A stretch of DNA of 20,000 nucleotides from an uncultured virus (IMG/VR IMGVR_UViG_3300047561_001544) (lineage: Duplodnaviria > Heunggongvirae > Uroviricota > Caudoviricetes), in the IMG/VR virus record IMGVR_UViG_3300047561_001544. One strand, given 5' to 3'. Position 1 is the first letter of the stretch. Each line of letters opens with the position of its first letter. This document shows positions 1,585 through 18,674 of the stretch, piece by piece. The notes beneath the pieces were generated by a model. It was not told the DNA's origin, made no database searches, and saw nothing but the letters and a program-made list of their open reading frames with translations. A program made the translations under genes and the position numbers.

Positions 1585-1590
1585 AAATAT

Positions 1591-1711: not shown

Positions 1712-1719
1712 AAGTAAAA

Positions 1720-1914: not shown

Positions 1915-1925
1915 AAATACTAAAT

Positions 1926-2418: not shown

Positions 2419-2421
2419 TTT

Positions 2422-2571
2422 ATGAAAATTAAAGAATTAATTAATTTACTTGAAGAAGAAAACCCCAAAGCCAAAGTAATTTTTGAATTTGAGGGCGAAG
2501 AATTGATTGTTGATGAATGGGATATTGAATCCAGCGATAATCTTGTAGTTGTTAAATTGGTAGAAAAATAG
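2422..2571 (+). CDS. small acidic protein, 49 aa (MKIKELINLLEEENPKAKVIFEFEGEELIVDEWDIESSDNLVVVKLVEK); not in the ORF track
   Basis: Translated by hand from ATG 2422 to TAG 2569-2571. Fills the gap exactly and has the common phage 'M(T/K)xKELIxxL..P.A.V' N-terminus. Confidence 0.7.
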   Translation: MKIKELINLLEEENPKAKVIFEFEGEELIVDEWDIESSDNLVVVKLVEK

Positions 2572-2572
2572 A

Positions 2573-2601
2573 TTGACGCGTTCGTAAAAATTCATTAATA
2601 T
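2573..2601 (+). promoter_or_regulatory. sigma70-like promoter
   Basis: TTGACG-N17-TAATAT, 8 nt before ATG 2610. Confidence 0.65.
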
Positions 2602-2609
2602 TCACGTAT

Positions 2610-2915
2610 ATGAAAAAACGTGGTAGAAAAGCTGGAAGCGGCAGTTTCATGCAAGTATCGCTTGAAGAACTCAATCGTGTACTAAAACCCAACGCGCGCG
2701 TTGTTATCTGGAGTCGTTACGGCCAGATGCTCGGAATTGAGGGCAAGAAGATCGAGGCAAACTACGATACTCTCGTGGCGGCAGTTAAGGGTGGCACTAC
2801 AGAAGTTGAAATCGAAACTTTTGGCGCGCAACCCGTAGCCAAACAAGAAGTTAAAAAACAGGACAATACGGAGGAACTCATCCCCAAGCCTTCGGTTTCT
2901 TTTGAGGTGTTTTAA
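2610..2915 (+). CDS. hypothetical protein with basic AT-hook-like N-terminus, possibly DNA-binding
   Basis: Starts MKKRGRKAGSGSF, has its own promoter, and uses GC-richer codons than its neighbours. Confidence 0.7.
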   Translation: MKKRGRKAGSGSFMQVSLEELNRVLKPNARVVIWSRYGQMLGIEGKKIEANYDTLVAAVKGGTTEVEIETFGAQPVAKQEVKKQDNTEELIPKPSVSFEVF

Positions 2916-2916
2916 A

Positions 2917-3117
2917 ATGAAAACTTTTATTAAAATCTTCTGGCCGTTTACCGTTTCGATTTGTATTATGATAATTGGCGCATTTATAATGGGCATTCCA
3001 ATTTCCATTCTATGGAATACTTTTTGCCCTAAAGTGTTCGGCGTAACTAGAATTGACTGGGTAGATGGGGCAATGCTTTATCTTTTGTGCAATCTTCTTT
3101 TTAAAAAGATCGATTGA
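2917..3117 (+). CDS. small membrane protein
   Basis: Likely start at ATG 2917. Two hydrophobic segments separated by LWN..P.VFG. Confidence 0.7.
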   Translation: MKTFIKIFWPFTVSICIMIIGAFIMGIPISILWNTFCPKVFGVTRIDWVDGAMLYLLCNLLFKKID

Positions 3118-3142
3118 CACGCCAATAAAAATCTATTAATAT
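3114..3142 (+). promoter_or_regulatory. sigma70-like promoter
   Basis: TTGACA-N17-TAATAT, 6 nt before ATG 3149. Confidence 0.7.
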
Positions 3143-3148
3143 TCAAAC

Positions 3149-3418
3149 ATGATCACTAAAAAAGACTATACAAAAGATGGTAAACATCCCGAAGATGTTA
3201 TCTATAAGGAAATGGAGTTTCGTAGCGAGGTTAATAAAATGCTCGTGCAGAGATTCGAGCAACTTGTAGTTGATTTGCGTCTTACTGCTGATGGCGCTGA
3301 TTATCTTATGAATTATTTTGATAATTATAGTTTCTTGTATGATAACGAGGAGATACTTGAATTTGATGAGTTTTTGTCTGAAAATTATGGTATTGAATAT
3401 GGGGATATACATAAATGA
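3149..3418 (+). CDS. acidic hypothetical protein, 89 aa
   Basis: ORF behind a promoter, ending where the next gene begins. Confidence 0.7.
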   Translation: MITKKDYTKDGKHPEDVIYKEMEFRSEVNKMLVQRFEQLVVDLRLTADGADYLMNYFDNYSFLYDNEEILEFDEFLSENYGIEYGDIHK

Positions 3419-3663
3419 CTGATGAACTTACAATTAAAGTAAAGGCAAGTTCATGGGCGCGTGTTACGCGCGAACGTGATGAAGCGCGCGCTGAGTGTTT
3501 AGAACAGTGCCGTTTGCTTGCTATGAGTGCGGATCGTGAGGCTAAACTACTTGGAGAGCTTGAGCGCGCAAAAAAATCCCTAGATCATTCTACATGGGTT
3601 CATGGCGCTTGTAATCCGCCGTCTCCAGATTGGCAGAAGTCTAGAGATTCACAAATGTATTGA
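3415..3663 (+). CDS. coiled-coil hypothetical protein with an ERDEAR motif
   Basis: Helical RERDEARAE...ELERAKK segment in a tightly packed ORF. Confidence 0.65.
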   Translation: MTDELTIKVKASSWARVTRERDEARAECLEQCRLLAMSADREAKLLGELERAKKSLDHSTWVHGACNPPSPDWQKSRDSQMY

Positions 3664-3688
3664 CACATTCTCCCAAATGGTATAGACT
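3660..3688 (+). promoter_or_regulatory. sigma70-like promoter
   Basis: TTGACA-N17-TAGACT, 8 nt before ATG 3697. Confidence 0.65.
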
Positions 3689-3696
3689 TGGGAATA

Positions 3697-4098
3697 ATGA
3701 AAATCCGAATCAATAACATCGGTGCAGAGAAAGTTGCATACATTGGTAAGCCTCCCAAAGATGCTGATCTGGAGATCTCCATTGTCAAGTATCATCCAAA
3801 CAGATACTATGGAGAGCTAGAGCCTTATATACAAGGTGGTTGGATAGATTGTGGCAGCTACATTGAGTCCCAAGTTCTAGGGACTATTCACAAAAATTGC
3901 TTCGATAGTCCAGAGACAAATTATGTCATAGCATCTTTAAAGTACAACAAGAAGGAAGATTACACTGAGTTGACTTCAGTTGCTGATAGGTTACTATACA
4001 TTGAGAATGAAGACAAAGAGAACTTCTGGGAGGTTTATAGGTTAGCTGATAAAGAGATGATGAAAAAATTTAGTAATGAACAAGAAGATTCCATATGA
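3697..4098 (+). CDS. hypothetical protein
   Basis: The TTG at 3688 overlaps the -10 box, so ATG 3697 (MKIRINNIGAEK) is preferred. Confidence 0.7.
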   Translation: MKIRINNIGAEKVAYIGKPPKDADLEISIVKYHPNRYYGELEPYIQGGWIDCGSYIESQVLGTIHKNCFDSPETNYVIASLKYNKKEDYTELTSVADRLLYIENEDKENFWEVYRLADKEMMKKFSNEQEDSI

Positions 4099-4567
4099 TT
4101 TAAGTTCAGAAGAAATTGATGAACTAAGAAAAAGAAAAAAAGAAATAAGTGATTTTGTTTTTGAACAATTTAAATTAAATAAAATGAAAAGAGAAATAAA
4201 ATTTAGAGTCTGGGACAAAAAGAATAAAGGCTTTTGTCATAAGGTTCATGAAAATTTCGATTTGATTTATGCTGATGACATATGGTATATTCTAGGTGGA
4301 AAAGCTCTAGATAATAATTTTGTAATGCAGGAATACATTGGACTAAAAGATAAGAATGGCAAAGAGATCTATGAGGGTGACCTTATTAATTTCTTTTGTG
4401 ACTATACTATGGATCTTGGTGATAGGGATGTAATTGAATACAAAAATCAAGAAGTTTATTATGATGAGAGACTTGCTGGATTCTATTTTGGTAAAGATGG
4501 ATTCCAAATGCTTGATAAAATCATGCCTGAGACTTTAGAGGTTGTTGGTAGCAATAATGAATTTTAA
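4076..4567 (+). CDS. YopX family protein; domain begins at Met 4184
   Basis: MKREIKFRVWDK, MQEYIGLKDKNGKEIYEGD and LEVVGS are YopX signature motifs. Confidence 0.88.
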   Translation: MNKKIPYDLSSEEIDELRKRKKEISDFVFEQFKLNKMKREIKFRVWDKKNKGFCHKVHENFDLIYADDIWYILGGKALDNNFVMQEYIGLKDKNGKEIYEGDLINFFCDYTMDLGDRDVIEYKNQEVYYDERLAGFYFGKDGFQMLDKIMPETLEVVGSNNEF

Positions 4568-4838
4568 AGACATTCATAATAGACAGATAAACAAGGGCGA
4601 TAAGGTTCTGGTTTATATTCAGAAATATGCGCGCGCGCACGTTGGCGAGAATGTTTATGAAGTCGATGCGTCGAAACCATATCCAGTAGCCGATGTGCCA
4701 ATGGCGCGTGGGCGCGTAGAGTGGGACAAAGATTTTAATAGTTTTGTTGTGCGTTATGATTGGACTTGTGACTCTTGGAAACATAAATCCGCCTCTCAAA
4801 TGGAGGGCGGTAATTATGCTTACGAAATTATTGATTAA
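4557..4838 (+). CDS. hypothetical protein with a YopX-like 'KD..NRQINKGDKV' start
   Basis: ATG 4557 overlaps the end of the YopX gene. Confidence 0.65.
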   Translation: MNFKDIHNRQINKGDKVLVYIQKYARAHVGENVYEVDASKPYPVADVPMARGRVEWDKDFNSFVVRYDWTCDSWKHKSASQMEGGNYAYEIID

Positions 4839-4845
4839 ATTTTAA

Positions 4846-5085
4846 ATGCGATACAGAATTAAACAAGTAGAAAAGTACGGAGAAAAATACTTCTATCCTC
4901 AGTATAAGAAGTTTCTTTTTTGGAGAAGGTTTGTCTGGTGGGGGGGAGAAGATGGATATACACCTAAAACAGTTTGGTACAAATATAAGGAAGAAGCTCT
5001 TGAGGCAATTGAAAAAGATAAAATAGAGCGAAGAGAGGAATCTCTTGAAGTTCCTAAAAAAACTATATATCATTACGTAGATTAA
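4846..5085 (+). CDS. hypothetical phage protein, 79 aa
   Basis: MRYRIKQ...FYPQYKKFLFW...EEALEAIE is a pattern common in small phage proteins. Confidence 0.7.
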   Translation: MRYRIKQVEKYGEKYFYPQYKKFLFWRRFVWWGGEDGYTPKTVWYKYKEEALEAIEKDKIERREESLEVPKKTIYHYVD

Positions 5086-5104
5086 TAATATAAAAATTAA
5101 CAAT

Positions 5105-5326
5105 ATGAAAATTGAAATTACAGACGATAGCGTAGATGAAATCATTTTGAATGGATTAAAAGAACAGAGGGATTTTATGTCTTCAGATTTAAAAAAATTA
5201 AAAAAGATTAAAAATCCAAAGCGTTACGTTCAAGAGGATATTGTATATCATACCAACTGCTTGCAGGCTTTAAAGACGGTAATCGCGCACTATAGTCCAA
5301 GCAGCAAGGTTCTGGGGGATTATTAA
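5105..5326 (+). CDS. hypothetical protein, 73 aa
   Basis: Packed ORF abutting the next start codon. Confidence 0.7.
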   Translation: MKIEITDDSVDEIILNGLKEQRDFMSSDLKKLKKIKNPKRYVQEDIVYHTNCLQALKTVIAHYSPSSKVLGDY

Positions 5327-5587
5327 ATGAAATATAAATTTGTAGAAACACAGGGCTGCCTATCTTCTGGCTTCACTATTAATGATGAAGAAATACAGGA
5401 TGTGCCCAGAGAAAAACAAAAAGAAATTGTAGATTATCTTTGCGAACAGATCAAAGACGGTTTCGCTAATGGAAGCATCTCCGTGCTAGATATCGTAAAG
5501 ACATTCGAAGTGCATTACAATGGAATAGAAAAAAATCGTTGCGAGACATGCGGCGACAGAGTATCTTGGGAGATTTGGGAGCTATGA
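5327..5587 (+). CDS. hypothetical protein with C-terminal CxxC (CETCGD)
   Basis: Packed ORF with an ATGA overlap to the next gene. Confidence 0.7.
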   Translation: MKYKFVETQGCLSSGFTINDEEIQDVPREKQKEIVDYLCEQIKDGFANGSISVLDIVKTFEVHYNGIEKNRCETCGDRVSWEIWEL

Positions 5588-5940
5588 AAGAAGATATTAA
5601 TGAATTAAAAACGCTTTTAAAAGTCATGGAGCAAGCTAAACACGCCACCTTGCAGCGCGAAGGTTTTGCCGTGGAAGAGCGTGATAAGGCGAGAGAGCTT
5701 TTCCAAACCGCGATGGAACTTGCCAAAAAATATAAAGACGAGCGAGACGATGCAAGGCTTGAATGGGATCATTGTCTGAATCTAGCAAATAAACTTTTAA
5801 AAGAGCGTGACGAATACAAAATCGGACATGATCGTTACGAAAAATTGCGCCGATTAAATTTGCAACAAATTAAAGAGTTGTATTTAAGAAATTTGCGAAC
5901 TGCAGAACATTTTGATACGCTTGTAGATAAGTTAAATTGA
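5584..5940 (+). CDS. coiled-coil protein with repeated ERD(K/D/E)A motifs
   Basis: ATG 5584 lies in an ATGA overlap. Contains EERDKAR, DERDDAR and KERDEYK. Confidence 0.7.
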   Translation: MKEDINELKTLLKVMEQAKHATLQREGFAVEERDKARELFQTAMELAKKYKDERDDARLEWDHCLNLANKLLKERDEYKIGHDRYEKLRRLNLQQIKELYLRNLRTAEHFDTLVDKLN

Positions 5941-6335
5941 ATAAAGTAATTACAGTTGATTTTGACGAAACCTTAGCTGTTAATTCATCAACAGCTTGGG
6001 GAGGAACTATGCTTGTTCCTGTAGAGCGTATTGTCAAATTTATTAAATCAAAAATTGATTCTGGATTTCATGTTTATGTTGTTACCTTCCGTAATTGGAA
6101 TAATAAAAAAGAAATTATTGACTTTTGCAAAGCATATGATATTAAAATTAAAGATGTTATTTGCACAGAAGGAAAGACTAAAACAGAATTTATAAAACGG
6201 CTAAATAGTTCTTTGCATATTGATGATCATGTTGAAACTTGCACACTATTAACTATGGCTGGGATTGAAGTTCTGCTTGTGGATTGGGATCAAGAAAAAA
6301 ATAATTTAATGGCACAACATTTTAATAAAATATGA
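5937..6335 (+). CDS. HAD-superfamily hydrolase/phosphatase
   Basis: Motif I VDFDETL, motif II VVTFR, motif III Lys (GKTK), motif IV HIDD. Confidence 0.8.
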   Translation: MNKVITVDFDETLAVNSSTAWGGTMLVPVERIVKFIKSKIDSGFHVYVVTFRNWNNKKEIIDFCKAYDIKIKDVICTEGKTKTEFIKRLNSSLHIDDHVETCTLLTMAGIEVLLVDWDQEKNNLMAQHFNKI

Positions 6336-7345: not shown

Positions 7346-8203
7346 ATGTATATACTAATTTTAGGTAAAGGGTTTATTGGAACCAGTATTTCCAAATATT
7401 TTAAACGTAATAATATTGAGCATAAGATTTACTCTCAATCTGAATTAGATTATACTAATACAAATATTTTTGAAGAGTATCTTAAAAATAATAATCAAAA
7501 TATTAGATGGGTTATTAATTGCTCAGGTTATACTGGAGTACCAAACGTAGACGCATGTGAAGACACCAAAGAGCTTTGCTATGCTTACAATGTTATTTAT
7601 CCTATGCAGGTTGTTAGAACTTGCCATAATCTAGATGTACCAATAATACATATTGGTTCTGGATGTATTTATTCTGGCTACGATAAAGATTATAATGAAA
7701 ATGACACGCCAAATTTTGGTATTTACTCTAACGAGTCTTCATACTACTCAAAGTGCAAACATATTTTTGAGACGTTTGCTAAAGATTTTAATTGTTATAT
7801 TTTTAGAATTAGGATTCCTTTTACAGAAACTCTAACAAGAAAAAATTATTTTAGTAAAATACTGGCGTATGACTCTCTTATTAACGAACTTAATTCAGTA
7901 ACCTCTGTTAATGATTTTAATAATTTTATAGTGAGGTTTATGGCAGTTAAACCAAAATATGGTATTTATAATGTTGTTAATCCACAACCTATTAAAGCAG
8001 AAGATGTTGTTAGTTTGCTTGAACTTCATGGTTTAAAAAATCCAAACTGGAAATTCATAAAGCTTAAAGACCTTAATACAAAGGCTAACAGATCGAATTG
8101 CGTATTATCAACAGATAAAATAAATAATCTTGGTTTGCAACTTCCTAATACAAACGACTCATTAGTTAGGGATATGGTTGCTTTAGCACGTTCACAGGAT
8201 TAG
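7346..8203 (+). CDS. RmlD-like NDP-sugar reductase (3,5-epimerase/4-reductase-type SDR)
   Basis: LGKGFIG Rossmann motif, INCSGYTGVPNVDACE, SGCIY, YSKCK (YxxxK), RIRIP, GIYNVVNP and RSNCVL. Confidence 0.85.
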   Translation: MYILILGKGFIGTSISKYFKRNNIEHKIYSQSELDYTNTNIFEEYLKNNNQNIRWVINCSGYTGVPNVDACEDTKELCYAYNVIYPMQVVRTCHNLDVPIIHIGSGCIYSGYDKDYNENDTPNFGIYSNESSYYSKCKHIFETFAKDFNCYIFRIRIPFTETLTRKNYFSKILAYDSLINELNSVTSVNDFNNFIVRFMAVKPKYGIYNVVNPQPIKAEDVVSLLELHGLKNPNWKFIKLKDLNTKANRSNCVLSTDKINNLGLQLPNTNDSLVRDMVALARSQD

Positions 8204-9284: not shown

Positions 9285-9809
9285 ATGATGAAAACTGAAA
9301 ATAATATAAAGCTGGTTCCAATCAATAACCTTCAACGTGGGGATAAATTTCAAATCCCTTCTGTTAAGGACACAATGCGCGACTTGACCTTTATCTCTTC
9401 TACGGATACGAGTACGCTTATCGAGGGTCAGAAGCGCGACACTATTAATGATAACTGGAAAGGTTTCCGATTCCATGTTTCTAATGGAGTCATGGTTCAA
9501 CTTGTTGACAAGTTTGAAGAAAATTTTATGGAAAACACAAACACTGCGACTGCTACGGCAGAGCAAAATACAGGAGAGGCTTCCGCGCCCAAGCGCAGGG
9601 GTCGCCCCTCCAAGGCAAAGCTCGCCTTCAATCAACTCAAGGGGGTTGCTGGTGAGTTCACGGTTAGGGACGTTGTCGAGAGCAACGATATCAAGGAGTA
9701 CGAGGTTCACAATTTGATCCGCAGCGCGGTTCAGAGTGGGAAGGTTCGTGTGGTCAAGGAGCTTGTTGGTGGGCGTGGTAAGCCCCGCAAGGTCTACAAA
9801 CTGGCCTAA
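9285..9809 (+). CDS. putative DNA-binding protein with AT-hook and C-terminal winged-helix-like domain
   Basis: KRRGRPSK AT-hook after a T/A-rich linker, then FTVRDVV...GKVRVV..GRGKPRKVYKL resembling a wHTH wing. Confidence 0.7.
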   Translation: MMKTENNIKLVPINNLQRGDKFQIPSVKDTMRDLTFISSTDTSTLIEGQKRDTINDNWKGFRFHVSNGVMVQLVDKFEENFMENTNTATATAEQNTGEASAPKRRGRPSKAKLAFNQLKGVAGEFTVRDVVESNDIKEYEVHNLIRSAVQSGKVRVVKELVGGRGKPRKVYKLA

Positions 9810-9825
9810 GTGTAATCAAGGATAA

Positions 9826-9896
9826 GCCTGGTTAGTTTAATGGTAAAACGGTTGATTTGTAATCATCTGACGCCAGTTCGATTCTGGCACTGGGCT
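9826..9896 (+). tRNA. tRNA-Thr(TGT), no encoded CCA
   Basis: Acceptor GCCTGGT/ACTGGGC; D arm GTTT/AAAC; anticodon loop TT-TGT-AA; T arm GCCAG-TTCGATT-CTGGC. Confidence 0.9.
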
Positions 9897-9914
9897 CATT
9901 CTATTTAATAAACT

Positions 9915-10196
9915 ATGATTAGTAAGCACGTTAATGAGATCCTAGAAGTTTGTAGGGAAAACTATCGTACCATCAAATGCGTAGAAGCTCTACATGATTC
10001 GTACAAGAAATTCGAAATTGAATCGAGTAATCTTTATCCTGATTTGGAATCCAAAGATGTTTTTATTCTAAATAATAATAAAGTCTTTACTACTGATGAT
10101 CTAGAGTTTGCAGAGATTATGAATCTTAATGGTAACCAAGTAGTATTTTTGGGGAATTATCGTTTCTTCTTTGAAGATAGTGTATTTAATATTTGA
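9915..10196 (+). CDS. hypothetical protein, 93 aa
   Basis: ATG ORF filling the space between two tRNAs. Confidence 0.65.
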   Translation: MISKHVNEILEVCRENYRTIKCVEALHDSYKKFEIESSNLYPDLESKDVFILNNNKVFTTDDLEFAEIMNLNGNQVVFLGNYRFFFEDSVFNI

Positions 10197-10206
10197 TAGC
10201 ATTAAA

Positions 10207-10280
<74 letters not shown>

Positions 10281-10291
10281 TTTTTATTAAC

Positions 10292-10834
10292 ATGGCACAT
10301 TTAGATCAACGTATATTTTGTGAATCAATTAAAACCAAATTGTCACATTACTTTTCTAATAAAAAAGTATTAGACATTGGATCGCTCGATATTAATGGTA
10401 ATAATCGATTTTTATTTCAAAATTGTGATTATACAGGTGTTGATATTGGTCCAGGTTTAAATGTTGATGTAGTTTCATTAGCACATGAATTTGATATGCC
10501 GAATAATACTTATGATGTCATTATATCTACAGAAGCTTTTGAACATGATATGTATTATGATTTAAGTATTAAAAATATTATTAAACTCTTAAAAAATAAA
10601 GGATTATTTTTATTTACCTGTGCTACGACTGGTCGTCCAGAACATGGAACAATTAATTTTAGACAGGAAGACTGCCCTCTAACGAAGGAGGACGAAAACT
10701 GGTCTCAATATTATAAAAATTTAACAAAAGAAGATTTTTTAAAAATTAAAAACTTTGAAGATTCTTTTGATACTTATAATTTTTATACTAATAATAATAT
10801 GTGTGACTTATACTTTTATGGAATCAAAAAATAA
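10292..10834 (+). CDS. class I SAM-dependent methyltransferase
   Basis: Start moved to ATG 10292 because the track start lies inside tRNA-Pro. Motifs VLDIGS, YTGVDI, YDVIISTEAFEH and LLKNKGLF. Confidence 0.85.
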   Translation: MAHLDQRIFCESIKTKLSHYFSNKKVLDIGSLDINGNNRFLFQNCDYTGVDIGPGLNVDVVSLAHEFDMPNNTYDVIISTEAFEHDMYYDLSIKNIIKLLKNKGLFLFTCATTGRPEHGTINFRQEDCPLTKEDENWSQYYKNLTKEDFLKIKNFEDSFDTYNFYTNNNMCDLYFYGIKK

Positions 10835-11402
10835 TTTTACAAATTCAATAATCGAAGAATTTTCAGAATTTATTTCTGATGAAGAATCTAATAAATTGAT
10901 AGAATTGGCAGAAATAGATCTAAAAAAAATGACAGTTTTAGGAGAAAGTTCCCCTAATGATTACAGAATTGCTGAAGGAACTTGGTTATCAAACGACCAA
11001 GAACCAATGAAAATGATCAGATATAGAATCTCCCAACTTCTGGATATTAATCCAGAAAATATGGAAGCGACCCATATTGTGAAATATAATGTTGGAGGTG
11101 AGTATAAAGTTCATCATGATTTTTTTCATACAAATACTGATTATTCAGAGTCAGCATTGAAGCGCGGTGGTCAAAGAGTTTATACAGCATTAATTTATTT
11201 AAATGATAATTTTACAGGAGGGGAAACAGAATTTCCAAAACTTAATATAACAGTAAAACCAGAAAAAAATAAACTGGTAATTTGGAAAAATTTAAAAGAT
11301 AATGATGAATTAAATATGGATAGTTTACACGCTGGACTTCCCGTGAAATTAGGATGTAAATATATTTTAATAATTTGGATTAGGAAAAATAAATTTATCT
11401 AA
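10818..11402 (+). CDS. prolyl 4-hydroxylase-like 2OG-Fe(II) oxygenase
   Basis: Likely start at ATG 10818. EFISDEE..LI, E..HIVKY..GGEYKVHHD (HxD), GGQRVYTALIYLND..GGETEFP and SLHAGLPVKLGCKY match the P4H alpha-subunit catalytic pattern. Confidence 0.88.
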   Translation: MESKNNFTNSIIEEFSEFISDEESNKLIELAEIDLKKMTVLGESSPNDYRIAEGTWLSNDQEPMKMIRYRISQLLDINPENMEATHIVKYNVGGEYKVHHDFFHTNTDYSESALKRGGQRVYTALIYLNDNFTGGETEFPKLNITVKPEKNKLVIWKNLKDNDELNMDSLHAGLPVKLGCKYILIIWIRKNKFI

Positions 11403-11408: not shown

Positions 11409-12047
11409 TCATATATTTAATAATTGAATATCTTGATTAATTAAATTTAAATCACGAGAATCCTTTAAACAAGCGTAATGTATAAAAAAACTTTCTATTT
11501 TTTTATTTGTAGAGTGATCAATACAATTATTCCATTTCCATCCGATATCAAAAGTAGGAATTTCAAATTCTGAAATATTATAATTTATATAAGTTTGTTC
11601 GGCATAATTATCTACTAAATAATCTTTTAATAACAATAAGTTTTTATGCAAATGTGAAAAAACAATAACTCCAGTATTAAAATATTTTTTAACGACATTA
11701 TTATTTTCTTTTATTAAAATATTTTGTAATAGTCTTTCTGGAAAATACTGCCCCTCTTCTAAAATTCCTACCTTTTCTTCGGGTACATATTCAAAAATAT
11801 TGGGAGCTATATTTAAATTAATTAAAATATCTATATCAATATAACAAATTCTTTTATATTTTTTTAAAAATTTATAAATTGCAAATTTATTATACTGTTT
11901 AATTTTAAAATTTAATTCTTCGTTTAAAATAATAAAATCAATATTATATTTTTTTGCGTACTCCTTCATAAAAGGAACGGTTAATTCCGATACTTTTTTA
12001 AAATTATCCCCTATGCATAAAGTAATAATAGCGTAATCTGAATTCAT
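11409..12047 (-). CDS. GT-A glycosyltransferase, GT8-like
   Basis: YKRICYIDIDILI (DxD), YFNTGVIVF, EQTYINY, KWN and FIHYA. Confidence 0.8.
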   Translation of the reverse strand: MNSDYAIITLCIGDNFKKVSELTVPFMKEYAKKYNIDFIILNEELNFKIKQYNKFAIYKFLKKYKRICYIDIDILINLNIAPNIFEYVPEEKVGILEEGQYFPERLLQNILIKENNNVVKKYFNTGVIVFSHLHKNLLLLKDYLVDNYAEQTYINYNISEFEIPTFDIGWKWNNCIDHSTNKKIESFFIHYACLKDSRDLNLINQDIQLLNI

Positions 12048-12076
12048 AATTTTAAGTCTAAGTGCATAATTGATAT

Positions 12077-13141
12077 TTATATTAATAAATTATGATAATA
12101 TGAAAAAACTGATTCAATATCTTCATATTTATTAGAATTTTTTAAAAATAAATTAAGTTTAGGTATTTTATATGTTTCGAATAGAAAATTTTGAATTCTT
12201 TTAATATCTAAAGATACTAATTTTTTATTTGAAAAATATTCATTTATTTTTTTAAGATTACCTTCGTCTGTTAAATTAAATTTTGAATGATTTATATACC
12301 CTGGCAATGATTTTATATTAAAAATTTCTGAATCGTCAAAACAAAAGCCTATTTTATTTAATAAATAGACTTCCAACATATAAGTATATACAATTAATTT
12401 CTCATTTTTAATAAAATTATGGCAGGCGCGTATTTTCGGAGTTAGTCCTTGCCAGTTGTCCATATTGAAAAATAACATATCAAAAATATATTGCTGATTA
12501 CATGCTTCAAATAAATTCATTAATTCGGGGTGATAACTAATAAAATAATTTACCCATAAATTTTGTTCTGGGACTAGATTATAAGAACTTAAATTTAAAA
12601 AATTAAAATTAACTATTTTAAGTAAGTCCTCTTTTTGGCCAAAATAAAATTTATCATTCCAAAAAAATACGGCTGGAACGTAATGAGATAGTGCTGCAGG
12701 GTGTTGCGCTAAACCAATTTTATAATTTAATCCATAAGCCCTATCTAAATTAATAAACTTACTCGGATTTGTTTCTAATAATTTTGTAACATTTTTAAAA
12801 TTAAATCCGTCAACGTGTGCAGATTTATCGGTTCGAAGCTTTAAAACAAAAGAGTCATCTGGACATAATTTTAAACCTGAGTGCGTGGTAATAAACTGTT
12901 TTAAATAGTTTCCTTTTATTTTTAAATTCAAAGTTGATTCGTGTTCTTTATTTTCAATAACAATAATTTTATATTTTTTTAATTCAGATAAAATTTCTGG
13001 AAATAAAAATAAATCGTTTTCCCAAGTCGATAGTATTATATTTTCAATAAGACCCTGCTCTTTAGCTTTTCCTAAAAAATTAATATTATCTTTTAAAACT
13101 GTAGGATTTCTAATTTTTCCACATATAATTGCCCATTTCAT
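12077..13141 (-). CDS. WavE-like polysaccharide synthesis protein
   Basis: IICG, IILSTWE, NYLKQFITTHSGL, VLKLRTD, DKFYFGQKEDL and VPEQ resemble WavE-family motifs. Confidence 0.65.
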   Translation of the reverse strand: MKWAIICGKIRNPTVLKDNINFLGKAKEQGLIENIILSTWENDLFLFPEILSELKKYKIIVIENKEHESTLNLKIKGNYLKQFITTHSGLKLCPDDSFVLKLRTDKSAHVDGFNFKNVTKLLETNPSKFINLDRAYGLNYKIGLAQHPAALSHYVPAVFFWNDKFYFGQKEDLLKIVNFNFLNLSSYNLVPEQNLWVNYFISYHPELMNLFEACNQQYIFDMLFFNMDNWQGLTPKIRACHNFIKNEKLIVYTYMLEVYLLNKIGFCFDDSEIFNIKSLPGYINHSKFNLTDEGNLKKINEYFSNKKLVSLDIKRIQNFLFETYKIPKLNLFLKNSNKYEDIESVFSYYHNLLI

Positions 13142-13926
13142 TATTTATTTATATAATATAGATACGCTTTGTCTTTAATTAATTTAAATTTTTTATTTTC
13201 AATGAATGCACCATCTTTTAATAAAGGCGTACGAGTTTGTTCAACAGACCAATGTTTAAAATTTTCATTATATAATTCATGAATGAATTTTCTATTAAAA
13301 AAATTATTATAATCGATACTATATAGTTTAGTTGTTTGATTATTATGATAAAAAATATGATTAGTATTATTTTTTACTAAATACCTATCATTTATCTTTA
13401 ATATTTTATAAATACTATTTGTATATACTCCAGGACCAGTCATAATATGAATATCATTTATTCTATTATCTATTGGAATAGGTTGTCTTTTCATCCAAAT
13501 ATTTTTAGTGATCTCCTCTATTATTTTTTCTAAAATGATATGTTTTTTATTAAAAATCAGTACCCATTGCGCAAAATAAGGAGAATCTTCTTTACTGATT
13601 AAAGCGTCTAAATCAGTATCAATTAGTTTGTCCAGATTTTGCTCACAAAAAGTATCAATATCGATATATACACCACCGTAATAATATAATACTAAATATC
13701 TCCAAAAGTCTGTTTTCGCAACCATTATATTTAATTTATTGAAAGCTTCCCAAATTTCTTTTGGATAATTTGTTTTAACAAAATCGTGAATATCATCATC
13801 ATTAAATAATAGATGTGCATAATTTGGATTATAATATTTAATTTTATCTATTCTAGTCTTAACAGAATTGACCACCTTTGTATAGTCCTTCTGCCTCCAT
13901 GTTTGAAATATTTGTTTGGGTATCAT
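13141..13926 (-). CDS. GT32 / OCH1-like glycosyltransferase (DXD sugar-binding family)
   Basis: MIPKQIFQTW, KTDFWRYLVLYYYGGVYIDID and TGPGVYT. Confidence 0.88.
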   Translation of the reverse strand: MIPKQIFQTWRQKDYTKVVNSVKTRIDKIKYYNPNYAHLLFNDDDIHDFVKTNYPKEIWEAFNKLNIMVAKTDFWRYLVLYYYGGVYIDIDTFCEQNLDKLIDTDLDALISKEDSPYFAQWVLIFNKKHIILEKIIEEITKNIWMKRQPIPIDNRINDIHIMTGPGVYTNSIYKILKINDRYLVKNNTNHIFYHNNQTTKLYSIDYNNFFNRKFIHELYNENFKHWSVEQTRTPLLKDGAFIENKKFKLIKDKAYLYYINK

Positions 13927-13950
13927 ACACTTTTTAATTAAAATATATAT

Positions 13951-13970
13951 TTATATTACATGTAATATAA
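13951..13970. promoter_or_regulatory. 20-bp perfect palindrome between divergent genes
   Basis: TTATATTACATGTAATATAA equals its own reverse complement and lies in the 61-bp gap between starts 13926(-) and 13988(+). Confidence 0.7.
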
Positions 13971-13987
13971 TTATTCTACAGTAATTT

Positions 13988-14965
13988 ATGATAGATATTC
14001 TTTTTGAAGATACTAATTTTGTCCCAGTCAATACTAAAAAAATTGTAAGATATGGGGAGGTGCTTAGTCCACCAGTTATAGCTTATGACTATATTAATAG
14101 TACTAATAATACTAAAAATATAGACGTTATAGCTCTAGACTCTTCCGAGAGTAATTGGAAAATAGAATTATTAAAACAATCTTTTTTAGAATATAATCAA
14201 AATAATTTGAATTTAAATTTAACAATATTAAATACTAAAAATATTTCTAAACAGTTGGCCTCCTTAAAAAATTATTTATATAATTCAAATTTTAATAGTG
14301 AATATGTATTATTAATAGATTCTAATTTTTTATTTACAGATTGTTTAAATAAACTAACTTTTAATAAAGAGTTTTTTGGTTCAAAACCTTTCTGTCATAT
14401 AAGTACAGAGGGTTCTTTTTGGAACAATACGATTGATTTAGTTTTATTTTTAATTAAAACTGCGGAATTTTATAAAAAAAATTTAAACGCTAACATAAAT
14501 ATAGATAAATTAAATTTTTATAAGGTATATGGTTTCCCGATGTATTTTAAAACAGATTTTTTAAAAAATATAATAAGTAGGTGGGAGGGCTTAACAAATT
14601 ATTTTTATTTTAATGACCATATTGATAATAATTTACATAAAAATGAATTAGCATGCCTATACGCACTTTCTTTTTGTCTTATCGAGCGTAACTTAATTAG
14701 TGATGAGACGCTAGACATTTCCTATATTACCTCTGAGCATTCAAATTTTAATATTAATTATTTATTATATAATCATAGAAATAAGTTAATATCTAACGCA
14801 ACAAAAGTTAAAATTTTTGATTCGAAGACTTATAAACCTTGGAGTTTAATAAATTATACTGTAGATAGTATGGATTATACATCAATTAAAATTTTTATTG
14901 AAGTATTTAATTATTTAATTTTCAAAAAGACGGGTATTGAGAAAGCGACTATAATTCCGGTGTAA
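13988..14965 (+). CDS. divergent paralog of the downstream HPAT/SERGT-like glycosyltransferase
   Basis: Collinear blocks shared with 14977..15888: NWKIELLKQSFLEY vs NWQTNVLYESFLEY; YVLLIDSNFLF vs YIILLDPDFIF; FPMYF..FLKNIISRW vs CPYII..LLSKIIDRW; LYALSFCLIE vs MYAFSFALAE; IFDSKTYK vs VFGKRSYK; C-terminal IIPV vs IIPY. Confidence 0.7.
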   Translation: MIDILFEDTNFVPVNTKKIVRYGEVLSPPVIAYDYINSTNNTKNIDVIALDSSESNWKIELLKQSFLEYNQNNLNLNLTILNTKNISKQLASLKNYLYNSNFNSEYVLLIDSNFLFTDCLNKLTFNKEFFGSKPFCHISTEGSFWNNTIDLVLFLIKTAEFYKKNLNANINIDKLNFYKVYGFPMYFKTDFLKNIISRWEGLTNYFYFNDHIDNNLHKNELACLYALSFCLIERNLISDETLDISYITSEHSNFNINYLLYNHRNKLISNATKVKIFDSKTYKPWSLINYTVDSMDYTSIKIFIEVFNYLIFKKTGIEKATIIPV

Positions 14966-14976
14966 TAATATCAAAT

Positions 14977-15888
14977 ATGCACAAGTATACAGTAATTGTT
15001 ACAAAAAACAATAGTGATTATATAAATTGGCAAACAAATGTTTTATATGAATCTTTTTTAGAATACCATAAGAACGATAAAAATTTTAAATTTATAGCGC
15101 TAGTTTCAAAAGATCAAAAATATTTAGAAAGTCCAAATTATCCATATATTTATTTTAATCATATTAATGTATTAAATAATGATAATTATATAGTTTATAA
15201 TAGAATTCTTAGTTTGAGGGAATATTTAAGAAGTATTGAATTAAGTGAGAATCGTTATATAATTTTATTAGATCCAGATTTTATTTTTTTAAAAAAATTT
15301 GATTTAGATATCAGTACAACAACCGCACAATTTTGTAGTTATTTAATAAATCATGAAGTTCTTAATTTTTTTCAAAAAACGTACGAGTCCGATGTAAAAG
15401 ATTTTTATTGCCCAGTAGCCTGTCCGTACATTATAAATGAAGTCCTTTTGTCAAAAATAATTGATAGATGGTTAGAATTAGCAGTTGATTTCAGAACAAA
15501 TAATATTAAAGATAGTCCGTTATACCAAAATTGGATATGTGAAATGTATGCTTTTTCATTTGCGTTAGCTGAAAATAAAATCCAAGTAGATATTAAAAAT
15601 TTTTGCGAATCTCCTCCAGGAGGTGATTATATATCAAATGAAAATTTAATTTTTTATCATTATTGCTATGACATTAGACATAATAAAACTAATCAACTAG
15701 TATTCGGGAAAAGATCGTATAAATTTGGACATTATATAGATCTTAATGGTCTAGAATATAATATTGGAAAAGACTCTTATAATTTCATTTCAAATTTTAA
15801 TTATTTCACTAAAAAATTAGGAGCTAAAGAGCAAGTTGAAGAAAAGTTTAATAAAGCATTTCTAACGCCACAAATTATTCCATATTAA
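14977..15888 (+). CDS. hydroxyproline O-arabinosyltransferase / peptidyl-serine galactosyltransferase-like (GT95/GT96) glycosyltransferase
   Basis: YINWQ, DNYIVYNR, LLDPDFIF, WICEMYAFSFALA, FYHYCY and FGKRSY occur in the order of the plant HPAT/SERGT1 motifs as recalled (WQ, YxxxN(R/K)P, (E/D)xD, WxxEMYxY, HY, FDKR). Confidence 0.72.
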   Translation: MHKYTVIVTKNNSDYINWQTNVLYESFLEYHKNDKNFKFIALVSKDQKYLESPNYPYIYFNHINVLNNDNYIVYNRILSLREYLRSIELSENRYIILLDPDFIFLKKFDLDISTTTAQFCSYLINHEVLNFFQKTYESDVKDFYCPVACPYIINEVLLSKIIDRWLELAVDFRTNNIKDSPLYQNWICEMYAFSFALAENKIQVDIKNFCESPPGGDYISNENLIFYHYCYDIRHNKTNQLVFGKRSYKFGHYIDLNGLEYNIGKDSYNFISNFNYFTKKLGAKEQVEEKFNKAFLTPQIIPY

Positions 15889-15946: not shown

Positions 15947-16285
15947 ATGTATAAGTATAAAGGCGTAGTTATAGAAGTTCACGATGGAGACACTTTAACT
16001 GCTGATATTGATTTGGGTTTTGGTGTTTGGTTAAAAAATCAAAAGTTTCGTTTGGCTAAAATTAATGCGCCAGAACTTAAAGGGGCAACTGCCGTTGCCG
16101 CTGCTGCCGCAAGAGATCGGTTAGCACAACTTGTTTTAAATAAAAATGTCACTATCAATACCAATCACGATCAAAAAGAAAAATTTGGCCGCTGGTTGGC
16201 GACTATTCTGATAGAAGAAGATAAAAATTTAATCGAAGTAAATGGAAAACTTATTGCAGAAGGATATGCTAAAAGTTATAATTGA
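15947..16285 (+). CDS. thermonuclease (staphylococcal nuclease-like)
   Basis: VHDGDTL..DIDLGF, RLAKINAPE, EKFGRWLA and VNGKLIAEGYA. Confidence 0.9.
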   Translation: MYKYKGVVIEVHDGDTLTADIDLGFGVWLKNQKFRLAKINAPELKGATAVAAAAARDRLAQLVLNKNVTINTNHDQKEKFGRWLATILIEEDKNLIEVNGKLIAEGYAKSYN

Positions 16286-16306: not shown

Positions 16307-16705
16307 ATGCCAATTGAAGATACAGATATTCCGACTATTGATAATAAAGCGGACTTTCAAATTGATAATTAGGTTGAACGTTTTTATGTTTATCGTGTGA
16401 CTTCTGCACCCAGCGTAACTCCCGACATAAGAGGTTTAAGATTTTATAAATTTAATCAAAAGTATCTTAGATTAGACACTTTTATTAGTGAAGATGGCAA
16501 TTATTACATTTCAGCATATTCAAGCGGCGGAACTACTGGATATTGGGTAATAGGCACAATAATCGGGGATAGTAGCGGTGGAGCAAATCGTTTTAGTTCT
16601 ACATTCAATGTTACTTTTTTACCGTATGGTAGTAGTCCTATAGACACAAGTTATAGTAGTCTAGCTGGAACATTATTACTATCAAAAATAACAAGTAACG
16701 AATAA
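16307..16705 (+). CDS. beta-rich, possibly virion protein interrupted by an in-frame TAG at 16370-16372 (readthrough, pseudogene or sequence error)
   Basis: ATG 16307 is in frame with track ORF 16397..16705, separated by a single TAG. It is preceded by AAGTGTAATA at the same spacing as the thermonuclease gene. Confidence 0.6.
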
Positions 16706-17098
16706 ATTAATTAAATTAGGCAATTACAGGTTAATTTAACCACCACAACCCCCCACGGTTACCCACATTAAACCATAAAAACACCTTTACTACAGAGATA
16801 GTAGAGGTACAAGACTTTAATACATTTTAATATGATTATTTTAACCAAATGGGAAGAAAAATGCTTGCAAATATTAACATTTATCGTTAGTATTGTAGAC
16901 GTTGCGAACGAGACCCTCTACAGAGTAAAACACAAGAAATACTATAGGATAAGTAAGTAGAATATAAAGACATAATAAGGAATAATAGAGTTTTAATATA
17001 AATGATTTAATATTAGAAATAGAACTATCCTATTTATATAATTAAAATAATAAAAGTGTGACAAAATGTCTCACTAAAAAAACGACACGAAAATAAAT

Positions 17099-17332
17099 AT
17101 GAGCAACACAATCAAAAATAACATAAAAAACTTGTATTACTCTGTACGTTATAGTAATTTTGTCGGTCGCGCACTGTATTTGCGTGGGTTGCGCGTGAAA
17201 ATAATCAGTACGATAATCTTTATAGTATTATTCTTTTCTATTTGTATTGTATTTGAATTGGCCTATCCGCGAACGATGGGCAACCAAATAAACGGTTTAA
17301 TTAACGAATTATTTTGGCTGGGTATTAAATAA
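17099..17332 (+). CDS. small membrane protein
   Basis: Single strong hydrophobic segment IISTIIFIVLFFSICIVF. Confidence 0.5.
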   Translation: MSNTIKNNIKNLYYSVRYSNFVGRALYLRGLRVKIISTIIFIVLFFSICIVFELAYPRTMGNQINGLINELFWLGIK

Positions 17333-17450
17333 AAATTCATTTTTAATACAGTTTATTAGGTTTTGCATAGGGGTTTATACAAATTTGCGAACGAAAAGTG
17401 GCGAAATAATGATATTAATTCATTTAAATGCATTTTTATTAAATTTGTGA

Positions 17451-17479
17451 TTGACTTTTGGCGAAATAAGTAGTAATAT
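17451..17479 (+). promoter_or_regulatory. sigma70-like promoter
   Basis: TTGACT-N17-TAATAT, 6 nt before ATG 17486. Confidence 0.65.
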
Positions 17480-17485
17480 ATAAAC

Positions 17486-17641
17486 ATGACAGTAAAACAT
17501 CTTAAAAAAATTATTCAGGATATTCCTGATAATGCCCTGATTACTATCACTGGGGAGGACAGCGACGGTATTCTTGTAGAGGAGTTCGCATCGTTTATTA
17601 AATATGACGAAGAGATTAATCAACTCTATATTAGTTATTAA
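17486..17641 (+). CDS. small protein, 51 aa (MTVKHLKKIIQDIPDNALITITGEDSDG...ISY); not in the ORF track
   Basis: Translated by hand. Has its own promoter and the common 'MTVKxL...PD.A.I' phage N-terminus, like 2422..2571. Confidence 0.7.
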   Translation: MTVKHLKKIIQDIPDNALITITGEDSDGILVEEFASFIKYDEEINQLYISY

Positions 17642-17654
17642 TGAATCCGAATTT

Positions 17655-17720
17655 GCGAAATAAACGCGGCGAAATAAACGTTTTACAAGATAGCACATTT
17701 GCGCACATTTCAGCACAGTC
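17655..17720 (+). repeat. short direct repeats upstream of uvsE
   Basis: GCGAAATAAACG at 17655 and 17669; GCACA at 17693, 17703 and 17713 (10-bp period). Confidence 0.7.
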
Positions 17721-17728
17721 CAAAATGT

Positions 17729-17757
17729 TTGACGCGCGCGCCAAAACCTGCTAGCAT
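17729..17757 (+). promoter_or_regulatory. sigma70-like promoter with extended -10
   Basis: TTGACG-N17-TAGCAT with TGC immediately before the -10, 5 nt before ATG 17763. Confidence 0.7.
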
Positions 17758-17762
17758 AGGTT

Positions 17763-18674
17763 ATGTTCAGAACTGGATACTGTTGCATCAACCTTAGTAT
17801 GGCTGACAAGTTTCGCACCATGCAGTTGAGTTGGGCTAATAGAAATAGGAAAGAGGATGTTGTAAATAAGTGGAAAGAAGTAGTAATACATAATTTTAAT
17901 TTACTTACTAGAATTATTAATTGGAACATTGCAAATAATGTGTTCTTGTATAGGATTAGTAGCGATCTTGTTCCTTTTGCTGACCATGAGGATTGGCGCT
18001 ATCTTTGGACAGAGTTCATGGCCGCGCCTGAGACCGCGGATTTGCTAAAGCCCGCGCGCGAAATAATCAAAACATATTTGGCTGGTGGCGGCCGCTGTAG
18101 TATACACCCTGGGCAGTTTGTATCCTTGGGATCTGTGAAAGAAGATGTGCGAAATAAGTCTATAGCGCACCTGGAATATCATGGGGAACTCCTAGATCTA
18201 TTAGAGCTACCAAAGAATCATGATTGTCCTATTAATATTCATATTAGTAATGGAACAAAAGATTGTGAAATAATAGCTAATAATGTAAAAAATTCTTTAC
18301 GTTTGCTTTCCCCGAGTGTAATAAAGAGGGTCGTCTTCGAAAATGAACAACATGGATGCTGGCACCCCCAAAATATTAGGAAATTTTTTCCGAACGTACC
18401 CATTACATTTGATTACCATCATTTTAGGATTAATGATGGTGGTATCACCCTGGATGAAGCAATCAGAATTACAAGCGAAAGTTGGCCAAATAATGAGCCC
18501 ATCCAGCATTACAGCGAAGGACGCGCCCATGAGTTGGACCCAGCGCATAGCGACTACGTTAGAGTTCTCCCAGTAAGTCAATACGATATTGAGGTAGAAG
18601 CCAAGCAGAAAGACCTGGCTATAAAACCTTTTCTTAATCATAGAAATAAATTTATTAATGGAATCCTATATTAG
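17763..18674 (+). CDS. uvsE: UV DNA damage endonuclease
   Basis: GYCCIN, FRT, LYRISSDLVPF, SIHPGQFVSLGS, LEYHGELLD, INIH, VFENE, ITFDYHH, QHYSE, AHSDY and IEVEAKQKDLA. Confidence 0.93.
   Translation: MFRTGYCCINLSMADKFRTMQLSWANRNRKEDVVNKWKEVVIHNFNLLTRIINWNIANNVFLYRISSDLVPFADHEDWRYLWTEFMAAPETADLLKPAREIIKTYLAGGGRCSIHPGQFVSLGSVKEDVRNKSIAHLEYHGELLDLLELPKNHDCPINIHISNGTKDCEIIANNVKNSLRLLSPSVIKRVVFENEQHGCWHPQNIRKFFPNVPITFDYHHFRINDGGITLDEAIRITSESWPNNEPIQHYSEGRAHELDPAHSDYVRVLPVSQYDIEVEAKQKDLAIKPFLNHRNKFINGILY

Follow-up and report, generated by a model that had tools for sequence, protein, structure and literature searches.

A phage gene of the plant-type HPAT/SGT1 glycosyltransferase superfamily and its putative role in hydroxyproline O-glycosylation

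Introduction

What does a glycosyltransferase with the hallmarks of plant hydroxyproline arabinosyltransferases do in a phage genome, and does it belong to the plant families or beside them? The question is raised by a gene at 14977..15888 of a 20,000-nucleotide stretch of DNA, the window hereafter, from an uncultured virus of the Caudoviricetes (IMG/VR IMGVR_UViG_3300047561_001544). By sequence, this HPAT-like gene truly belongs to the HPAT/SGT1 superfamily, in a soluble branch of it that is associated with phages. From homology, fold and context, its product is a putative initiator of protein or peptide O-glycosylation, probably on hydroxyproline, a reading to which we give a probability of roughly 0.55.

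Plant HPAT and SERGT1 enzymes glycosylate cell-wall proteins rich in hydroxyproline and serine, HPAT proper transferring L-arabinofuranose from UDP-L-Araf to 4-hydroxyproline in peptides. The plant enzymes HPAT1-3 founded family GT95, to which GT96 is related, and they are Golgi type II membrane proteins (PMC8012813). Both families are treated as plant and algal ones (PMC8012813, PMC8476585), and hydroxyproline O-arabinosylation is described as plant-specific (10.1101/2022.10.26.513895).

Our literature search, with subscription-only journals outside it, turned up no work on HPAT-like enzymes from phages or bacteria, nor on Pfam family PF23452. It likewise found none on prolyl 4-hydroxylase (P4H), hydroxyproline or extensin in phages, or on ribosomally synthesized and post-translationally modified peptides (RiPPs) with a prolyl hydroxylase and a glycosyltransferase. 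The string 'GT95' in PMC9900821 is a locus tag, not a mention of the family.

Results

The gene encodes an HPAT/SGT1-superfamily glycosyltransferase

The gene and its six ordered motifs are located as follows.

14977..15888 (+), HPAT/SGT1-superfamily glycosyltransferase, 303 residues, ATG start, stop codon within the coordinates, single-domain open reading frame (ORF)
15019-15033, motif YINWQ, residues 15-19
15187-15204, motif YIVYNR, residues 71-76
15265-15279, motif LLDPD, residues 97-101
15532-15561, motif WICEMYAFSF, residues 186-195
15655-15669, motif YHYCY, residues 227-231
15703-15720, motif FGKRSY, residues 243-248

The original prediction, made from the sequence alone, had listed these motifs in this order, and all six are present in the ORF. 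It had also proposed homology to plant HPAT and SERGT1, which a profile search bears out: the protein matches PF23452 (HPAT; "Hydroxyproline O-arabinosyltransferase family") at 78.2 bits (E 9.4e-22), the curated cut-off being 23.9. The alignment spans residues 4-245 and profile positions 1-257 of 307. Together, the motif set and the profile match are far beyond chance.

Twelve further metagenome homologs with 37-64% identity were retrieved by a word-indexed protein search, and PF23452 is found in 12/12. The alignment of all 13 sequences holds 35 invariant columns, including W18, Q19, Y71, R76, D101, W186, M190, H228, Y229 and K245, and the DxD motif is D99-P-D101. Such invariance among homologs of 37-64% identity points to purifying selection on an active enzyme. 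No PHROGs or NCBIfam family was found for this protein or for its tandem paralog described below.

The AF2 model built on the 13-sequence alignment has a GT-A fold with its first beta-strand from residue 3 (pLDDT 88.4, pTM 0.87), disorder being confined to the last 19 residues. A structural search against representatives (VIA-align) matched glycogenin (Z 15.9), WbbM (15.4), LgtC (15.4) and 6mw8 (14.9), and further UGGT (14.7), LARGE1 (14.0), GlyE (13.4) and the PBCV-1 capsid glycosyltransferase 2p6w (11.8). The alignments to glycogenin, WbbM, LgtC, UGGT and LARGE1 span about 200-240 residues. Foldseek ranked GT6 and GT8 enzymes at the top (E about 4e-8, TM about 0.5), and no solved HPAT or SERGT1 structure turned up in the fold searches run.

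Several of the top fold matches glycosylate proteins, namely glycogenin, the Skp1 glycan galactosyltransferase 6mw8, UGGT and GlyE. The top fold matches are retaining enzymes, which is consistent with the retaining chemistry of HPAT and SGT1. The maximum Kyte-Doolittle 19-residue mean is 1.23, so the protein has no hydrophobic segment and would be soluble. The product is thus predicted to be a soluble, cytoplasmic, metal-dependent (DxD) GT-A glycosyltransferase.

The motifs are common to the whole superfamily

Some of the six motifs had been assigned to an HPAT type and others to a SERGT1 type, as if the gene were a mosaic. In a 28-row motif table, all six recur in plant HPAT, SERGT1 and bacterial rows and are eroded only in three rows of the paralog clade, while domain 1 of SERGT1 misses the last motif only. 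The mosaic reading therefore falls, because the motifs are shared across the whole superfamily. The core is WQ, YxxxN[RK], DxD, WxxEM, HY and K[RA]xY, every element of which is in the window protein.

The details vary by group: YxVxNR, EPDH and HYTY in plant HPAT; YPAINK, DADM and HYG in SERGT1; YxPYNK, DPDC, HYCY and DKRxY in the bacterial homologs; YIVYNR, DPDF, HYCY and GKRSY in the window protein. By its DPD, HYCY and KRxY, the window protein is nearest in detail to the bacterial set. Against subclade hidden Markov models (HMMs), it scores 144 bits with the bacterial one, 126 with the clade holding plant HPAT and 44 with the SERGT1 clade.

The single model PF23452 covers both plant families, scoring 395 bits with the Glycine max protein P0136 and 418 bits with the Avena protein P0066 over the full model, and 134 bits with the plant SERGT1 P0108, close relatives of which bear the name peptidyl serine alpha-galactosyltransferase in many plants. 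Plant SERGT1 has two tandem PF23452-type domains at residues 32-277 and 393-658; the phage-clade profile scores 37 bits with the second and 20 bits with the first. A GT-A-like fold has been predicted for GT95 and a novel fold for GT96 (PMC8476585), and the latter prediction is at odds with the clear homology of SERGT1 to the GT-A-type HPAT.

The phage branch lies outside the HPAT and SERGT1 clade

Two trees were made, a quick one of 130 domain sequences and a careful one of 61 rows (IQ-TREE, LG+C20 PMSF), and they agree. Beforehand, 39/167 proteins were dropped for partial profile coverage, P0136 was restored via its Pfam coordinates and three redundant SERGT1 proteins were dropped. The trees are unrooted, many rows are skewed in composition and most are metagenome proteins.

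The window protein falls in a 14-row clade (support 100/99) together with window-like metagenome proteins, the proteins of the related contigs L001 and L002, and the window paralog with its relatives. Plant HPAT forms a clade of 10 rows (100/99) and SERGT1 one of 6 rows (100/99). Both sit in a 24-row clade (98/88) that includes every named eukaryote sequence, its label resting on a few anchors, namely Glycine, Avena/Alopecurus, Coleochaete and one EukProt transcript, the only names obtained in cluster look-ups of 30 proteins, and the named plant SERGT1 relatives. The phage clade is outside it.

A tree in which the phage clade is made to join the HPAT clade is worse by 51.4 log-likelihood units (approximately unbiased (AU) test, p 0.00115), and one in which it joins SERGT1 is worse by 59.0 units (p 0.0003), in groups named post hoc after the tree had been seen. 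These tests and the clade placement put the window protein outside GT95 and GT96 as strictly defined. The tree shows the phage clade outside the HPAT and SERGT1 clade and nothing more; it does not bear on which branch is oldest.

Bacterial homologs are widespread and often linked to P4H-type oxygenases

The profile of the 13-sequence alignment, run against 1.84 billion cluster representatives, gave 388 matches at E<=1e-3, 107 at E<=1e-10 and 11 at E<=1e-30. Genomes were scanned as one per prokaryotic species with patterns drawn from an alignment of bacterial-like members, and homologs were confirmed in 37/87 pattern stretches. They occur in Chloroflexota, Actinomycetota, Gemmatimonadota, Rhodothermales, Planctomycetota (including the isolate Kolteria novifilia Pan216), Nitrospirales, Acidobacteriota, Myxococcales, Alphaproteobacteria and Gammaproteobacteria. 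With homologs in 37 bacterial genomes of many phyla from this one scan, the idea that the families are mainly eukaryotic does not hold. A prokaryotic genome scan with patterns of the window clade confirmed 0/164 stretches.

The 37 bacterial loci were fetched with flanks of up to 8 kb. A PF13640 gene or domain, the family of the window's own P4H homolog, occurs in 22 of them: 6 were found by phmmer with the window P4H, and 16 by Pfam out of 17 further candidates, L015 not being confirmed. The Pfam-based search shows that phmmer alone (6/37 loci) undercounts. At least one PF13640 match is present in 29/37 homolog-bearing genomes vs 2/14 control genomes, with 0-9 matches per genome.

In some proteins, the two domains are joined in one chain. 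At four loci (L019, L021, L035 and L039), a single protein of about 1,170-1,195 residues, its ORF starting near 8.0 kb, has HPAT-like and P4H-type domains. The metagenome protein P0031 (1190 residues) combines HPAT, PF11397 "GlcNAc" and PF13640 2OG-FeII_Oxy_3. In other representatives, the HPAT-like domain is fused to O-FucT (PF10250) or Nucleotid_trans (PF03407).

An alphaproteobacterial operon was read gene by gene at six loci (L020, L023, L024, L030, L033 and L041; about 3.9-9.2 kb per locus). A protein of about 700 residues comes first, then a 2OG-FeII_Oxy_3 oxygenase and a PF11397 transferase, and last an HPAT-like protein bearing a PqqD domain at its C-terminus. The first has a weak O-FucT match under the cut-off in 4/6, the PF11397 protein is present in 5/6 (absent from L041) and the PqqD domain in 6/6.

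PqqD is a peptide-binding recognition element of RiPP pathways, and PF11397 is the family of the Skp1 hydroxyproline GlcNAc-transferase. These partners point to a peptide acceptor. By its gene content, the operon looks like an undescribed RiPP-like pathway of peptide hydroxylation and glycosylation.

Long Ser-Pro or poly-Pro ORFs were also seen about 1 kb from the HPAT-like gene in two Gemmatimonadota loci, L009 at 9712-10887 (-) and L014 at 9710-10672 (-). At 70-73% GC, they may be spurious frames. Poly-Pro ORFs beside bacterial homologs were dropped as candidate acceptors, being uninformative because such frames arise by chance in DNA of 55-73% GC.

A prolyl 4-hydroxylase homolog borders a glycosyltransferase island in the window

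The HPAT-like gene is the last of five glycosyltransferase genes in a low-GC island, directly upstream of which are an oxygenase gene and a methyltransferase gene. The features are these.

10223..10834 (+), S-adenosylmethionine (SAM)-dependent methyltransferase, phrog_32762 E 4.1e-48, PF13489
10755..11402 (+), P4H homolog (2-oxoglutarate (2OG)-Fe(II) oxygenase), PF13640 E 2.3e-16, start at TTG 10755 or ATG 10818
11409..15888, low-GC island of 4.5 kb with five glycosyltransferase genes, GC 22.8% vs 34.5% in the rest of the window
11409..12047 (-), GT8-family glycosyltransferase, PF01501 E 2e-8, 34.6 bits
12077..13141 (-), WavE-like glycosyltransferase, PF07507 E 8.4e-7, 29 bits vs a cut-off of 27
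13141..13926 (-), Gly_transf_sug glycosyltransferase with a DXD sugar-binding region, PF04488 E 2.1e-18, 67.2 bits
13988..14965 (+), degenerate tandem paralog of the HPAT-like gene, 325 residues, ending 12 nucleotides before it

The oxygenase gene is 3.6 kb upstream of the HPAT-like gene. All nine Protein Data Bank (PDB) sequences that its product matches at E<=0.01 are prolyl 4-hydroxylases, the best being 3itq at 1.2e-29 (3itq and 5hv0 at about 1e-29), and its Fe/2OG-binding HxD...H...K positions align with those of 3itq. Starting at TTG 10755 entails an 80-nucleotide overlap with the methyltransferase gene and a hydrophobic N-terminus (hydropathy 3.20), which may be a mere effect of AT-rich sequence; starting at ATG 10818 gives a soluble oxygenase.

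The methyltransferase is possibly a sugar methylase. In Synechococcus phage S-CBS4 and Pontimonas phage phiPsal1, homologs of it adjoin annotated glycosyltransferases. The five island genes each have a GC content of 20.7-23.8%.

Further upstream is one gene that may concern sugar supply.

7346..8203 (+), RmlD-like NAD-dependent sugar-nucleotide reductase/epimerase, PF04321 E 3.9e-18

Its product scores 68 bits with TIGR01214 rmlD, far under the cut-off of 224, and is loosely linked as a possible supplier of the donor sugar. Among the window ORFs scanned, Pfam named no UDP-arabinose mutase and no UDP-xylose 4-epimerase.

These neighbours also suit an island that remodels a host envelope glycan, such as the core or O-antigen of lipopolysaccharide (LPS), capsule or teichoic acid, for example against superinfection, the acceptor then being a sugar or lipid rather than a protein. 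The GT8 (PF01501), WavE (PF07507) and Gly_transf_sug (PF04488) families take their names from the synthesis of LPS or oligosaccharides, two of the best structural matches of the HPAT-like protein are LgtC and WbbM (both Z 15.4), the RmlD-like gene lies 7 kb upstream and the low-GC island resembles a swappable accessory cassette. The P4H-type, PF11397 and PqqD partners and fusions of the prokaryotic homologs, however, are not expected for envelope-glycan enzymes. Moreover, the HPAT-like protein, the paralog and the P4H read from ATG 10818, the three proteins tested for it, lack the membrane segment usual for enzymes that act on undecaprenyl-linked acceptors. Every characterised PF23452 member acts on peptide hydroxyproline or serine (PMC8012813). 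We consider envelope remodelling unlikely.

The tandem paralog has eroded catalytic motifs

The paralog has no Pfam family above the cut-off. It matches the 13-sequence alignment with an hhalign probability of 98.6% (E 8.3e-16) and the HPAT-like protein by blastp with 24% identity (E 5e-5). It has NWK for NWQ, DSN for DPD, CLY for EMY and NH for HY, and it lacks the YxxYNR segment. Similar erosion is seen in its relatives P0149 and P0083. Judged by these motifs, the paralog is probably non-catalytic.

Related phage contigs carry a candidate acceptor

Scans of viral and metagenome contigs found members only on the IMG/VR contigs L001, L002 and L043 and on the short L004. The first and the third are syntenic relatives, in both of which a candidate acceptor is encoded near the HPAT-like gene.

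L001 7164-7970 (+), Cys-rich protein of 268 residues ending in SPPPPPPPPPSPPPLPPPPPT, about 2 kb upstream of the HPAT-like gene
L043 8144-8950 (-), 37%-identical homolog of the former with SPPPPPSPSSPSSPPTIPPPPPT, about 2 kb from the HPAT-like gene
L001 10001-10888, HPAT-like gene
L043 5641-6525, HPAT-like gene, inverted relative to its neighbours
L001 10885-11709, DUF6065 (PF19541) gene
L043 4482-5324, DUF6065 (PF19541) gene

The endings of both Cys-rich proteins are an extensin-like Ser-Pro run. Neither protein has a Pfam or PHROG family, and each gene is preceded by an unannotated ORF of 923 or 941 residues. As the two contigs are syntenic relatives, the Ser-Pro stalk counts as one lineage.

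The HPAT-like genes of L001 and L043 are 32% identical while their flanking genes are 59-96% identical, which suggests that the gene at this position was replaced or evolves very fast. Such turnover would fit a drifting accessory 'moron' acquired with a foreign low-GC cassette and having no link to P4H, with an acceptor that is a small molecule or is unpredictable by homology. The GC break at the island edges and the degeneration of one of the two paralogs point the same way. Against this stand the intact ORF, the 35 invariant columns in 13 homologs, among them D101, W..EM and HY, and the confident AF2 model, and we regard a drifting moron as very improbable.

On L002, the HPAT-like gene is surrounded by a replication module of bacterial type (DnaB, primase, PolIII alpha, ThyX and RecA-like). 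At 1396-6176 and 16592-18301 of this contig, within 10 kb of the gene, are a GT2-like gene, a GDP-mannose 4,6-dehydratase, two Methyltransf_24 genes and a GT1-like gene.

DUF6065 is the conserved neighbour of the HPAT-like gene on L001 and L043. It was considered as a substitute hydroxylase in phages that lack a P4H and rejected: its AF2 model (pLDDT 80.1) has a dUTPase/dCTP-deaminase-like fold (Z 10.2-8.5), matching dUTPases and no oxygenase. No PDB sequence match was found for DUF6065, and the literature search returned no paper on it.

The phage setting is rich in nucleotide and DNA metabolism

The window has 32% GC, and 10/22 of its ORFs match PHROG families (dehydrogenase, clamp-loader-type AAA, methyltransferase, oxygenase and nucleases). 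Pfam also names GMP-reductase/IMPDH-like, YopX, RmlD-like, RuvB-like AAA, SNase and UvdE. Such content resembles that of an accessory or replication region from a large uncultured phage, and the closest Atlas clusters are mostly viral (Uroviricota), with one bacterial. These ORFs, YopX, the three tRNA genes and the relatives on IMG/VR contigs make the setting phage-like, in agreement with the original prediction of a phage gene. The other features of the window are listed here.

592-1584, GMP-reductase/IMPDH-like protein
1591-1677, tRNA-Ser (ACT)
5937-6335, HAD-type phosphatase-like protein
9826-9897, tRNA-Thr (TGT)
10207-10280, tRNA-Pro (TGG), 96% identical to tRNA-Pro of Synechococcus phages S-IOM18 and S-8S29
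15947-16285, staphylococcal-nuclease (SNase) homolog
17763-18674, UvdE UV endonuclease

Apart from the tRNA-Pro gene, no part of the window matches deposited phages at the DNA level. By exact 50-nucleotide searches, neither end of the window was found on another viral contig. Relatives of UvdE are mainly in jumbo phages.

Surroundings so rich in nucleotide metabolism keep alive another reading, in which the island glycosylates hydroxylated bases of the phage DNA as an anti-restriction hypermodification and the 2OG oxygenase or another enzyme supplies the hydroxyl. GMP-reductase-like, HAD phosphatase-like, SNase, UvdE and dCMP deaminase genes are found in the window and L001, the conserved neighbour on L001 and L043 has the dUTPase/dCTP-deaminase-like fold with Z up to 10.2, and phages do glycosylate DNA, including with arabinose (PMC13326640). 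The arabinosyl-cytosine pathway, however, starts from a thymidylate-synthase homolog (PMC13326640), and Pfam named none among the window ORFs scanned. The same source mentions neither HPAT nor hydroxyproline.

Two of our searches also argue against DNA as the acceptor. By tblastn, the window protein, the L001 protein and the bacterial-type P0033 matched none of 50,697 deposited phage records, so the known phage DNA glycosyltransferases are not detectable relatives. The PDB matches of the oxygenase are prolyl hydroxylases only, 9/9. DNA glycosylation by the island thus seems to us a long shot.

Discussion

A proposed pathway starting from hydroxyproline

The proposed protein O-glycosylation would proceed in steps. 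The P4H homolog at the island edge would hydroxylate proline to 4-hydroxyproline, the most likely acceptor, a serine next to prolines being the alternative. The HPAT-like enzyme would then attach the first sugar to the side-chain hydroxyl of the protein or peptide, the GT8, WavE-like and Gly_transf_sug transferases would extend the glycan and the methyltransferase would cap it. The paralog may, speculatively, serve as a non-catalytic helper or acceptor-binding subunit. The target would probably be a phage protein, and related phages encode the Ser-Pro stalk protein near the HPAT-like gene. The only characterised HPAT/SGT1 relatives act on peptide hydroxyproline or serine (PMC8012813).

Several observations weigh against this pathway. 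Neither the 20-kb window nor L002 has a proline- or serine-rich acceptor. The L001 record (86% complete) has no PF13640 gene, and in the L002 record the sole such gene and the HPAT-like gene are about 19 kb apart. Nucleotide and DNA metabolism makes up most of the surroundings in both the window and L001, and the DUF6065 neighbour on L001 and L043 is dUTPase-like, not an oxygenase. By their Pfam names, the GT8 and WavE families are typical of LPS synthesis.

The P4H link has its own weak points. Phages of marine and fresh waters commonly carry P4H-type oxygenases, that of the window having matches in 104 phage records, so its nearness to the HPAT-like gene could be coincidence. With 28% GC, the oxygenase gene is nearer to the flank than to the island. 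The 22 bacterial loci are not independent either, about 16 being of one alphaproteobacterial operon type and 4 of one fusion type; the remaining P4H-linked loci are three singletons (Acidobacteriota, Myxococcales and Acidimicrobiia).

Comparison with known systems

With plant HPAT1-3 (GT95), the phage protein shares PF23452, the six conserved motifs and a GT-A-type fold, as predicted for GT95 (PMC8476585). They differ in that the phage protein is soluble without an N-terminal anchor while the plant HPATs are Golgi type II membrane proteins (PMC8012813). The phage protein has DPD and HYCY where the plant ones have EPD and HYTY, and it belongs to a separate clade (AU p 0.00115). The nearby P4H in the phage matches the plant order of hydroxylation and then glycosylation.

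Plant SERGT1/SGT1 (GT96) belongs to the same superfamily and has a true DxD, and its two tandem domains resemble the two tandem genes of the phage. SERGT1, however, is one polypeptide of about 820 residues with a C-terminal hydrophobic segment, whereas the phage has a 303-residue single-domain protein and a separate paralog gene, whose copy is catalytically degenerate. SERGT1 also differs by YPAINK, DADM and HYG. Clear membrane anchors are present in plant SERGT1 and in several relatives within the clade of named eukaryotes.

Skp1 of Dictyostelium and Toxoplasma is glycosylated on hydroxyproline by cytoplasmic, soluble enzymes, namely the P4H PhyA, the GT60 enzyme Gnt1 and later transferases including AgtA. 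The phage system would be alike in its soluble cytoplasmic enzymes and in the order of P4H first and several glycosyltransferases after, and the AgtA-type 6mw8 is a structural match of Z 14.9. The bacterial relatives of the HPAT-like gene have PF11397 and a P4H-type domain as operon or fusion partners. Unlike Skp1 glycosylation, the presumed initiator is HPAT-like and not GT60, and Pfam named no PF11397 gene among the window ORFs.

Virus-encoded protein glycosylation is also represented by mycobacteriophage virions and by the capsid of chlorovirus PBCV-1. In these systems, virus-borne soluble glycosyltransferases act on the virus's own proteins, as is proposed here, and the PBCV-1 enzyme 2p6w is a GT-A enzyme matched with Z 11.8. 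Both systems use other transferase families, and we know of no hydroxyproline linkage reported for either.

The bacterial operon of an O-FucT-like protein, 2OG-Fe(II) oxygenase, PF11397 and HPAT-PqqD (Hyphomicrobiales-type) is alike in giving the best HMM score (144 bits), in DPD, HYCY and KRxY, and in the P4H-type oxygenase and further transferases alongside. The phage protein, in contrast, has no PqqD domain, its partners are GT8, WavE-like and Gly_transf_sug transferases and its clade is separate (100/99).

Implications

More tentatively, a wider proposal can be made, which we think possible but somewhat doubtful. Phages would run their own cytoplasmic, plant-like hydroxyproline O-glycosylation, in which P4H acts on a probably virion-associated phage protein, the HPAT-like enzyme adds the first sugar and the island builds a capped oligosaccharide. 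The superfamily itself would have begun as a prokaryotic peptide-modifying family, linked to P4H and fused to PqqD, the RiPP recognition element (RRE), and ancestral to GT95 and GT96.

In summary, the window gene belongs to a soluble, phage-associated branch of the HPAT/SGT1 superfamily, and the phage probably coats a protein with sugars much as plants do, which would be new for phages. If this is true, the plant-type hydroxyproline/serine glycosylation chemistry would extend to prokaryotes and their viruses, and the origin of the plant GT95 and GT96 enzymes would gain a handle. The small, soluble members would be easily expressed enzymes for structural work on the HPAT/SERGT1 superfamily. For the phage, it would be a possible new protein decoration that may be relevant to host recognition or particle stability.

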